Assembly: GCF_947568905.1 (NCBI RefSeq)
Contig: NC_079166.1
Span: 9,300,001 to 9,364,000, forward strand
Length of the DNA: 64,000 nt
Source: Ostrea edulis
Lineage: Eukaryota
Direction: 5' to 3'
The translations under genes and the position numbers were made by a program. How positions within the stretch are numbered: position 1 is the first letter of the stretch; each line of letters starts with the position of its first letter. Under the pieces are notes generated by a model. It made no database searches. It worked only from the letters and a program-made list of their open reading frames with translations, and was not told the DNA's origin. This document shows positions 34,335-36,908 of this stretch, in pieces.

Positions 34335-34517
34335 CGTTCTGGTTCCTTTAAAAAATCGGAATGCCCGATTTTTGACGTTGCGCTCGTTTTAAAAAGGCGA
34401 GAGCGCGGACGTCCTCGAAAACATCCCCTACCTCAGTCAAAGATGGCTGACGTCATGTTGATGACTCATCAAAAAACACTATATACATAGGTCACTTGTT
34501 ACCATTTTTTCTCAATC

Positions 34518-34919
34518 ATGTCGTTTGAACGGTACGTGCAAGATGAGAAAGATGTACTAGTGTGTGGGTATTGCCGAGGACCTTGGAGAACTTGTGGGTG
34601 TTTTCATTATAAAAAAGAAAACATCCTGGCCAAACATAAGTGGATAGAGTATATGGCAGAGCTGAATTATTGTCCCTTTGTCTATAAATGTTGTGGTCAC
34701 ACTAGAGAACCCTGGCTAGCGTGTAAGTGTCCGCAGCATTGTACCATCACCCCTGAAGAAGAAATAGCGCATAAGGACTGTACCTGTGAGATCTGTCAGG
34801 AGTTTAGAGAGCGCTGGACTCGGAGAAAGTTTAAGCCCCACCTGTTTCAACATTGTCCTTACAGTCAAGAACCCCGGTCAACGTGTACCTGTGAGACCTG
34901 TCAACCAGCATGTCGGTGA
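34518..34919 (+). CDS. Cys/His-rich putative zinc-binding protein, 133 aa
   Basis: TATA at 34480; three C..(R/E)P(W/R)..CxC repeats. Confidence 0.65.
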   Translation: MSFERYVQDEKDVLVCGYCRGPWRTCGCFHYKKENILAKHKWIEYMAELNYCPFVYKCCGHTREPWLACKCPQHCTITPEEEIAHKDCTCEICQEFRERWTRRKFKPHLFQHCPYSQEPRSTCTCETCQPACR

Positions 34920-35407
34920 CGGATCTACGAGGAGATGTATTATCACTACCTTGGGTGGATGGTATTGTACAACAATGTAACTGTTTAACGGTGAAACCTC
35001 ATGGATTAAGTCAACGTATTGCCGACCGATTTCCTTGGGCTAATCTGTATGCGACCCGACAACCTTTAGGACGGAGAAATTTAGCTATAGCAGCGGATCG
35101 AGGAATACCGGGTACTGTGTGTATTATGCCTCATTCTTCTCATCCTGATGTGATCTGTTTGTTAGCGCAATGGGATTACGGGAGAGGCACTCAACGCTTA
35201 CCCCTGTATGCCGATACCCCCGAACAACGTGAACTTTGGTTTCAACAATGTTTACAGGAATTAGGCACTTTGTCTTACCAGACTTTAGCGTTTCCTTATC
35301 GTATTGGATGTGGATTAGCCGGAGGCAATTGGACTCATTATAGACAATGGATTTGTGACTTTGCTTATCAGTATCATAAACATGTTTACATTGTCAAGAA
35401 AATGTAA
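34910..35407 (+). CDS. Macrodomain protein (TARG1/DarG-like ADP-ribose hydrolase fold), 165 aa
   Basis: GDVL..IVQQCNC...GLS..IA..FP..Y; LAFPYRIGCGLAGGNW. Confidence 0.85.
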   Translation: MSVTDLRGDVLSLPWVDGIVQQCNCLTVKPHGLSQRIADRFPWANLYATRQPLGRRNLAIAADRGIPGTVCIMPHSSHPDVICLLAQWDYGRGTQRLPLYADTPEQRELWFQQCLQELGTLSYQTLAFPYRIGCGLAGGNWTHYRQWICDFAYQYHKHVYIVKKM

Positions 35408-35513
35408 CTTTATTATAGCTTTATTCTAGCTATTACTTGTGTTAATAAAACTTTTTTAAAACAAACTTGTGTGTTTCTTGATTTTTGCCATAAAAAGTGT
35501 CTTTTCAAAAAAG

Positions 35514-35540
35514 TTGGTGGCCCTGAAAAGGGCCGTTTGG
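35514..35540 (-). terminator. Histone-type 3' stem-loop 2 (CCAAAC GGCCCT-TTTC-AGGGCC ACCAA)
   Basis: Stem-loop at 35534-35519 on the minus strand, 22 nt after the RING gene stop; followed by TTTTTGAAAAGACA. Confidence 0.85.
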
Positions 35541-35556
35541 TCCTAAGGACCGACTT

Positions 35557-36345
35557 TCAATCCCTGGTTCCGGTAAACCGGCATAACGGGCACCGTCCCC
35601 GGGTGTGTCGCCGCTCCTGTAACTCTTCCACGCACGAGCAGCAAGCTGGGCGCTGCCCACATCCCCTGCACGTGATACCGGAGTGTACCCTGTCTTGCCA
35701 GCAGACAGGGCACTTAAACCAGATGGGAACCGCCCTATCTGCCCAGCCAGGGACAGTCATAGGGTGGTTCCTCGGGGGATGAGTTGCCACCGGTGCGTGG
35801 GTTGGTCTCGGTGGTGGAGTCCTCCCTGCAAACCGGATGGTAGGTGGTGGGGGTCTTGCAGGGGCTGCTGGTCTCGGTGGTGATGACGTGTCTGTCACCA
35901 ACAGCGACGGACTCTGACGTGGGCTGGGAGGTGGTGCGGGGGACGGTGACCTCGGTGAATACTCCACCGGTGACGCTGGTGAGTCGCTCATCGGCACCGG
36001 GCTGTATTCCACTGGTGCCGATGGGATCGCTGGTGGTGGTGTTGTAGGCGTCGCCGGGGAGTAAGGTGGTGGTGGTGAGGGTGGCTGTGGGGTCCGTCGG
36101 CGCGGTCTCGTGGCCGTGGAGATCCGAGCGGTGCGGCGGCGGGGTGCCCTCCCTTCATACTCGGCCCGCACCCGGCAGATGATCTCACGGACCCCACTCT
36201 GGTCGAAAGGGGAGAAGGTGCTCAGGTCGTTCTCAGAACGCACGACCCAATTCTCCCCTACCCGTTCCTCAGCCACCACTAGGAGCCGGTACCGAAACCC
36301 AGGCAAGGTCTGAAAATTGTAGAGCGGGTCTCTTCTTGCAGCCAT
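35557..36345 (-). CDS. Pro/Ser-rich protein with C-terminal RING finger (putative E3 ligase), 262 aa
   Basis: CPVC..ITCRGC..CCSC..CPLC; long SP/TP-rich linker. Confidence 0.75.
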   Translation of the reverse strand: MAARRDPLYNFQTLPGFRYRLLVVAEERVGENWVVRSENDLSTFSPFDQSGVREIICRVRAEYEGRAPRRRTARISTATRPRRRTPQPPSPPPPYSPATPTTPPPAIPSAPVEYSPVPMSDSPASPVEYSPRSPSPAPPPSPRQSPSLLVTDTSSPPRPAAPARPPPPTIRFAGRTPPPRPTHAPVATHPPRNHPMTVPGWADRAVPIWFKCPVCWQDRVHSGITCRGCGQRPACCSCVEELQERRHTRGRCPLCRFTGTRD

Positions 36346-36908
36346 TCTTCTTTCTTCTTTCTTCTTTAAAATCCTTCAAAAATCTTCTACAACTGTGCTG
36401 GATCACCAGTGAAGCGAACTGGCGAGCGCGCCGGTATATATCAGGAAAGCGCGGACCTCCTCGAAAACATCCCTCGCTTCGGAGACGAAGCCAAGATGGT
36501 GGCCGTCAAAATGGCGGATTTGTGCTTTCGAGTAGAGAGTTTTTGCTCATTGTCTTTTTCTAGACATTCGATATCTGTGCAAGGTAGATTTAATCTGATA
36601 GATTCTGGGGCGCGGAATGCGTTAAACTTATTTTTATTTTGCTACGTCGCATAGTTTTCAAAGAAACAGCGGTTAAAGAGGTCGAGTCGAGGTTCAATGT
36701 TTCTTCACCACCTCTTTAAAAATTTATTTCTAGACCATGTACATCCCTAAAAACATCTCATAAGGTCTATTCGATAGAAAACACCTTATTTGATTCGATT
36801 TTCACTCTACCTTTAGGATTTTCTGGATTCCTCAACAAATAAACCCTTCTCTGAGAGAGTCAACCAAACACAGCTTTCGTGTAAACAATTTTATTCATGT
36901 CACATATT

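Follow-up and report, generated by a model that had tools for sequence, protein, structure and literature searches.

Two non-histone genes of an oyster Maverick/Polinton share an H1-like promoter motif and histone-type 3′ ends

Two genes of a Maverick/Polinton in the flat oyster Ostrea edulis, here called A and D, share a 26-nt promoter motif and each end in a histone-type stem-loop followed by a histone downstream element (HDE). They lie in a window of 64,000 nucleotides (assembly GCF_947568905.1, contig NC_079166.1, positions 9,300,001 to 9,364,000), and all coordinates below are those of this whole stretch. The motif is not virus-specific and resembles an animal histone H1 promoter element. 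We consider it probable that it is the proximal element of H1 promoters, the ‘H4 box’ or H4 site II, acquired along with histone 3′ signals, and that it would give genes A and D S-phase, non-polyadenylated mRNAs; the repeat is real, and the borrowed cassette is likely to be functional. Its anatomy, its likeness to H1 promoters and its pairing with the 3′ signals are read directly from the DNA, and its retention in homologues indirectly from protein records.

The motif, AGCGCGGACSTCCTCGAAAACATCCC, occurs at 34402-34427 and 36448-36473 with one mismatch between the copies (25/26), as a preliminary description of this DNA had claimed. It is unique in the window, where no further occurrence was found at up to three mismatches and where 0/100 shuffles gave two matches; neither the window nor the terminal inverted repeats (TIRs) of the element hold weaker full copies, and the exact 26-mer has no match across the GTDB genome contigs. 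The longest run shared by the A and D promoters at no more than one mismatch is these same 26 nt, whereas 200 shuffles gave no run above 15. One correction to that description concerns the strand: the functional strand of both copies is minus, on which GGGATGTTTTCGAGGASGTCCGCGCT is followed by TATA and then by the open reading frame (ORF). The TATA-like elements stand where it had placed them, with a gap to the motif of 6 nt in each copy rather than its approximately 7 nt, and the SGTCCGC core lies 10 nt from TATA in A and in D. The promoter features are as follows.

34402..34427, minus strand: motif copy A, H1-type ‘H4 box’-like, with the core CGTCCGC at 34405-34411
34387..34395, minus strand: gene A TATA, of non-canonical sequence (TTTTAAA), 10 nt downstream of the core; transcription would start near 34362 (CATTC)
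36448..36473, minus strand: motif copy D, with the core GGTCCGC at 36451-36457; 19/26 to the H1 promoter of locus L024 (see below)
36435..36441, minus strand: gene D TATA (TATATA), 10 nt downstream of the core; transcription would start near 36410
36521..36529, minus strand: H1-box (AC-box)-like site GAAAGCACA, 70 nt before the gene D core

The motif belongs to 2 of the 24 ORFs of the element, and these are the same two that have a stem-loop and HDE (hypergeometric p 0.004). The genes and their 3′ ends are listed here.

34035..34334, minus strand: gene A, an ORF of 99 amino acids (aa), acidic/Trp and Pro-rich with a basic C-terminus
33948..33963, minus strand: gene A histone stem-loop, of the H1 type (closed by an A-U pair, with ACCCA next)
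33928..33934, minus strand: gene A HDE (GAAAAGA), its core 15 nt downstream of the stem-loop
35557..36345, minus strand: gene D, 262 aa, with a small N-terminal domain, a Pro-rich linker and a C-terminal RING-like Cys cluster
35519..35534, minus strand: gene D histone stem-loop, of the core-histone type and 22 nt past the stop codon
35500..35506, minus strand: gene D HDE (GAAAAGA), its core 14 nt downstream of the stem-loop

The Rfam model Histone3 (RF00032) matches gene D at 35494-35539 (40.2 bits, E 2e-8). The stem-loop of gene A is under the Rfam gathering score, yet it folds the same 6-bp stem, and its 21-mer is identical to that of an animal H1 gene (L002, one of the contaminant loci described below). 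An A-U closing pair is present in 2/3 H1 genes and in 0/16 core histone genes. Between the A and D stems this closing pair has changed on both sides, so that pairing is compensated, while the second G-C pair and the loop U are retained in both; the available excerpt of 10.64898/2026.10.14.759114 gives these two positions as stem-loop criteria, along with a stop distance of 25–60 nt. In histone genes the HDE follows at 11–18 nt (18/19 where a core was found), which makes the 15 nt of A and the 14 nt of D the usual distance. The scan that supplied the histone genes used a pattern derived from the stem-loops of the window, so that the 3′ comparison is biased to similar types; the promoter comparison does not share this bias.

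The coding regions had been described as unrelated, and so they are (BLASTP E 0.7). Both are intronless short ORFs with no match to the histone families of Pfam. Gene A has one homologue (74%) and no Pfam or NCBIfam match. Gene D is 97% identical to a 54-member cluster annotated in O. edulis, where it is multicopy; its C-terminus is RING-like as judged from the Cys pattern and from weak Atlas matches (below 0.9), with no Pfam match, and its AlphaFold model (predicted local distance difference test score 44.5) is unusable. One O. edulis gene model, P0003 (LOC130055009, 316 aa), fuses the D and A frames and is an annotation artefact or a rearranged copy. A and D appear to work like histone genes without being histone genes.

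The preliminary description had proposed a search of histone promoters, and here the result was positive. GTDB contigs scanned for a stem-loop plus HDE gave 27 rows, which reduce to 25 loci on 15 distinct contigs; most of these are animal DNA that contaminates metagenome-assembled genomes (MAGs). Histone genes lie on nine of the contigs and non-histone ORFs that end in the same way on three, and the remaining three have no clear ORF. Several GTDB representative MAGs hold animal histone clusters, some on chimeric contigs (L003, L023). After L005 (the cluster of L002) and L023 (truncated, no promoter) were dropped, 20 promoters from four assemblies remained. SGTCCGC is present in 4/4 H1 promoters versus 2/16 core-histone promoters, one H2B and one H4 (Fisher p 0.003, with promoters that are not independent). 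Over the full motif the H1 promoter of L024 matches at 19/26 (0/1000 shuffles), that of L002 at 17/26 (0/1000) and that of L003 at 17/26 (16/1000); apart from the seven promoters whose values are given here or below, the other 13 of the 20 are at chance level. The GTRYYTT-like 5′ half of the motif is common to H1 promoters as well. In L024 the match stands 6 nt above ATATAC, as in gene D, and across the four H1 promoters the distance from SGTCCGC to a TATA-like site, by a widened pattern, is 5, 8, 8 and 12 nt. The 9-mer GAAAGCACA, spotted post hoc, lies 69 nt above the core in L024 and 70 nt above it in gene D. Similar sites stand in L013 (AGCACA at 70 nt) and L003 (AAACACA at 59 nt) and none in L002, so 3/4 H1 promoters carry one. 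Our first guess, a copy of an H4-specific promoter, was dropped, with the core in 1/4 H4 but 4/4 H1 promoters. An H4 box is present in mussel H1 promoters, and Drosophila Hinfp reportedly acts on H1.

Like replication-dependent H1 genes, A and D are thus intronless short ORFs with SGTCCGC just above TATA, a 16-nt stem-loop with ACCMA and an HDE; gene D alone adds the H1-box-like site. Unlike histone genes, they encode non-histone proteins and sit in a mobile element rather than a cluster, the 3′ untranslated region of gene A is longer, and YY1 and cAMP-response element (CRE) sites are added.

A profile search found 43 relatives of D, several of which are over-extended gene calls reading through regulatory DNA. 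P0033 and P0007 (38% and 42% identical to D by alignment) begin with a common peptide, CFLLRPR-S-YIRAL, upstream of the true start region. The read-through of P0033 fits 23/26 motif bases (0/300 shuffles) and that of P0007 22/26 (4/300), each with a TATA-compatible YI after the motif peptide; by eye, P0017 and P0011 hold parts of the same peptide. At the other end, C-terminal peptides fit the stem-loop in P0007 (21/21 bases) and P0036 (19/21; 0/300 shuffles each). For each pattern 2/47 proteins reach 3/300 or fewer, and most of the 47 are not over-extended, so the misses say little. The C-terminal extension of P0007 reads as tandem stem-loops, an H1-type (SPFQGY) and then a core-type (TALFRAT).

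Because motif and stem-loop persist in homologues 38–42% identical to D, the cassette appears to be old and kept. The same persistence counts against a neutral relic, in which flanking DNA of one H1 gene was captured, underwent a single duplication inside the element and has since become irrelevant. In its favour, the motif copies agree with each other at 25/26 whereas the best H1 promoter reaches 19/26, as expected after internal copying or conversion. Against it, identity ends at the motif edges (the 40-nt flanks are 11/40 identical on each side), the TATA spacing is kept though the spacer sequence differs, and A and D carry different stem-loop types, in which the changed pair is compensated. 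We regard such a relic as quite improbable. A recent segmental duplication, the case that the preliminary description had named as refuting its proposal, is ruled out as the source of the two copies by the dissimilar flanks, the unrelated proteins and the two stem-loop types.

The mechanism we favour is that the H1-type ‘H4 box’ was acquired by the Maverick lineage together with the histone 3′ signals and kept at two accessory genes. A host factor, most likely HINFP, would bind the SGTCCGC core and recruit NPAT and the histone-locus machinery at G1/S. The U7 small nuclear ribonucleoprotein and SLBP would then yield non-polyadenylated mRNAs cleaved after ACCCA or ACCAA, with GAAAAGAC as the candidate pairing partner of oyster U7 small nuclear RNA. 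Translation of both mRNAs would be SLBP-dependent in S phase, with decay at its end, making A and D a cell-cycle-timed early class, apart from the TATA/poly(A) genes of the element and expressed when host replication factors are present and chromatin marks are being re-laid. Many other genes of the element have TATAAA approximately 40–80 nt before the ATG. The preliminary description had suggested that the two genes, whose 5′ and 3′ signals match as those of histone genes do, form an expression class of their own, either immediate-early or S-phase; the H1-like promoter element lends support to such a class, whose co-regulation we infer, and S-phase timing of the histone type is preferred to immediate-early.

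Published work, seen in excerpts for each article named in this paragraph, bears on the promoter element. The H4 subtype-specific element is the binding site of HiNF-P, which brings in NPAT (PMC5706932), and a mouse H4 promoter primer reads GGTCCGC, 10 nt and TATAA, the spacing of gene D (PMC3128520). The core and 10-nt gap are thus like H4 site II, the HiNF-P (HINFP)–NPAT element; unlike it, the element in our invertebrate sample marks H1 (4/4) more than H4 (1/4), and its binder is putative. H1.0 promoters are described as having an ‘H4 box’ that resembles H4 site II and binds HBP1 (PMC6027317). The excerpt of PMC10827134 mentions only transposon repression, and the promoter consensus was not found in those of PMC13525598, PMC5011920, PMC6210712, PMC12979687, PMC9145170 and PMC12342192, which served as background only.

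The HBP1 connection raises a reading in which the same H1-derived cassette confers another timing, that of an H1.0-type (HBP1/Rb) or maternal/early-embryo promoter, with the stem-loop serving mainly to bypass poly(A)-dependent control or shut-off and expression extending beyond S phase. The H4 box is indeed known from differentiation-dependent H1 genes with HBP1 as binder (PMC6027317, in excerpt), early-type promoters (CRE/TATA) stand elsewhere in the element at the protein-primed DNA polymerase B gene (pPolB) and at gene B, and an ORF with a PP1-binding, GADD34/ICP34.5-like character points to translation control. The best-matching H1 genes, however, carry a stem-loop and HDE, and two of them are located in core histone clusters or have 3′ signals in common with such clusters, as the replication-dependent type does. 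We consider this other timing unlikely.

Around the motif copies the preliminary description had also placed YY1-like sites. They are present (34440, 36493 and 36508) and clustered, 4/8 falling within 746 bp (p 1e-4); the labels YY1, CRE and AC-box are what we take these and the related sites to be. As a histone-derived feature they did not hold up, and a part for them in the borrowed H1 module was rejected, with 0/4 H1 promoters carrying them.

34440..34485, plus strand: YY1-like site, TGACGTCA, TGACTCA and TATA, the probable promoter of the divergent gene B (34518-34919)
36493..36517, plus strand: two YY1-like sites (AAGATGGT and AAAATGGCGG), at 36493 and 36508

A layout of TGACGTCA plus TATATA is common to the promoters of pPolB (20938-20960) and gene B (34448-34485). 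Copy A lies within the shared A/B intergenic region, where the YY1-like sites cluster, as would be expected if the 26-mer were the site of an element-encoded transactivator or served gene B, its likeness to H1 being convergence on a CpG-rich site. Yet no plus-strand ORF lies behind copy D, gene B has its own CRE/AP-1/TATA set 53 nt away, and convergence leaves the H1-box spacing and the H1-type stem-loop unexplained; this origin seems to us very improbable.

Several observations weigh against an H1-derived cassette with S-phase timing. The likeness to H1 was judged on 20 promoters of four MAG assemblies contaminated with animal DNA, whose counts are not independent. The H1 promoter of L013 does not exceed chance over the full 26 nt (15/26, 115/1000 shuffles), and some core-histone promoters match well: H2B of L002 (17/26, 0/1000) and of L015 (17/26, 2/1000), and H4 of L019 (16/26, 5/1000). 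Gene A is without an H1-box and has a weak, non-canonical TATA. Its stop-to-stem-loop distance of 71 nt (22 nt in D) exceeds the 21–47 nt of 19 histone genes. Poly(A) hexamers follow the stem-loop by 74–104 nt in A and D, as they likewise do in 8/19 histone genes. Among the homologues, only 2/47 proteins reach 3/300 or fewer for the promoter motif, and one of them (P0031) may be chance. The HINFP consensus applied to the SGTCCGC core is one that we presume. The H4 box of vertebrate H1.0 is tied, in the excerpt of PMC6027317, to differentiation-linked HBP1/Rb control and not to S phase. Lastly, the preliminary description had counted two stem-loop genes, which stands for A and D, but a third hairpin follows gene E (38622-39128, plus strand), with neither the motif upstream nor an HDE.

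39148..39163, plus strand: third histone-like hairpin, after gene E, with AATAAA before it and no HDE

The gene E hairpin is perfect, H1-type and 19 nt past the stop, and AATAAA precedes it; the gene shares its promoter with a Bcl-2-like gene, in a region rich in E-boxes.

Non-histone genes with histone-type ends also appeared among the scanned contigs. In L025 (JBEVXV010000209.1, 146-788) the 3′ end of a C3HC4 RING gene has a perfect histone stem-loop and an HDE. The contig is gene-dense, intronless and virus-like but was assignable to no virus family, and the RING gene is flanked there by a kinase and by a 1040-aa protein from an unnamed metagenomic family. This gene is possibly an independent case of a stem-loop-ended non-histone gene and hints that the 3′ half of the arrangement recurs. 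A MADF-domain ORF in L014 (136-860) and an uncharacterized 99-aa ORF in L021 (94-451) each have a TATA, a stem-loop and an HDE. The motif is absent upstream of the ORFs of L014, L021 and L025 (best 12–15/26). In L007, L008 and L009 a histone stem-loop and HDE have no clear ORF upstream.

Gene D has a further histone-like feature.

36115..36132, minus strand: TARIST, residues 72-77 of D, matching residues 6-11 of H3 (TARKST, as in the H3 of L002), with I at K9

Across 17 aligned sequences the K9 column holds M in six, I in five, T in two, N and K in one each and two gaps, that is M or I in 11/15. Motifs of the TAR(I/M)ST type are found in P0002, P0004, P0019 and P0021; the homologue P0011 reads TARKSTG, as in H3, and D subfamilies such as P0033 and P0009 lack the motif. 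The composition expectation for TARIST is 5e-5, but this is a six-residue motif spotted post hoc. According to the excerpt available of PMC6513997, M and I at K27 inhibit PRC2, and K9M binds the active site of G9a. Like EZHIP, a K27M mimic, and like viral histone-tail mimics, gene D combines a short H3-like motif, M or I at the lysine and a disordered Pro/Ser-rich region; unlike EZHIP, its context is K9 (TARKST), it is encoded by an element and it is joined to a RING-like domain, and its activity is putative. For an element that resists re-silencing, a K9 decoy timed to S phase and linked to a RING-like domain would be well suited. A wider and more speculative proposal, which we offer tentatively, is that bivalve Mavericks grafted a whole H1 cassette onto an anti-silencing gene, D being an S-phase H3K9-to-M/I decoy fused to a RING ligase that might block or remove H3K9 methyltransferases when replicated chromatin is re-silenced, and that histone-type 3′ ends may recur on genes of invertebrate mobile elements and DNA viruses (the L025 RING gene, L014 and L021).

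The element that holds these genes is well preserved at its ends.

20556..40739, no strand assigned: Maverick/Polinton holding both motif copies, recognized by TIRs, target-site duplication (TSD) and Pfam genes

Its 20.2 kb are bounded by intact 279-nt TIRs (99% complementary) with AGTAGT termini and a 6-bp TSD, TACATG. With pPolB (PF03175, E 7e-57), an rve integrase (PF00665), a packaging A32 ATPase (PF04665, E 1.9e-6) and an adenovirus-type C5 protease (PF00770, E 1.7e-4), together with the long TIRs and TSD, it is a Maverick/Polinton; IAP is also among its Pfam matches. A candidate capsid ORF (31926-33329, 467 aa) stands where a double jelly-roll major capsid protein is expected; it has no match in Pfam, NCBIfam or PDB, and neither PDB nor phage proteins gave anything useful. 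An NCBIfam scan of seven window ORFs was uninformative. The integrase ORF (28254-29157, plus strand) stops short of a chromodomain-like stretch, seen by eye in another frame, and the integrase of this copy appears broken before it. Candidate host-control genes at 36909-38482 (minus strand) and 24992-25519 (plus strand) comprise the PP1-binding GADD34/ICP34.5-like ORF, a weak Bcl-2 match and a BIR-RING IAP (Pfam); three tandem ORFs of similar size adjoin the Bcl-2 match. Gene C (34910-35407, plus strand), without a Pfam match, is presumably macrodomain-like of the DarG/TARG1 type, as judged by eye. Elsewhere in the window, a satellite array occupies 57500-61100 and 51470-51780, in units of approximately 166 nt, which we take to be the size of oyster satellites.

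The gene content is like that of the adintoviruses (PMC8502044): pPolB, integrase, ATPase, protease, TIRs, a 6-bp TSD and IAP and Bcl-2-like accessory genes. Unlike the accessory genes described there (‘oncoid’, IAP and Bcl-2), those studied here carry putative histone-type control signals; the main text of that article does not contain ‘stem-loop’, ‘promoter’ or ‘polyadenyl’. A literature search that covered subscription papers thinly turned up, among the matches listed, no description of Maverick genes with a promoter or 3′ end of histone type. In the excerpt of 10.64898/2026.10.14.759114, no processing factors were found in large DNA viruses, and ‘non-histone’ and ‘transpos’ are not mentioned. 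Articles on viral or non-histone stem-loops, by title and start of abstract, and on K9M mimics, in part, yielded no such case. The components themselves have been described before, whereas an endogenous virus that uses them on genes other than histones appears, provisionally, to be new.

If the interpretation is correct, the combination of an H1 promoter element with an SLBP/U7 end would give a virus a new means of timing its genes to S phase and of evading poly(A)-linked control. The comparison also points to the H4-box element as a main H1 promoter signal in invertebrates. A natural minimal cassette outside histone clusters, of approximately 100 nt of promoter and 45 nt of 3′ signal, would probe what suffices to recruit histone-locus-body factors, and the K9M/I-like motif may offer a testable route by which an element could resist heterochromatin silencing.

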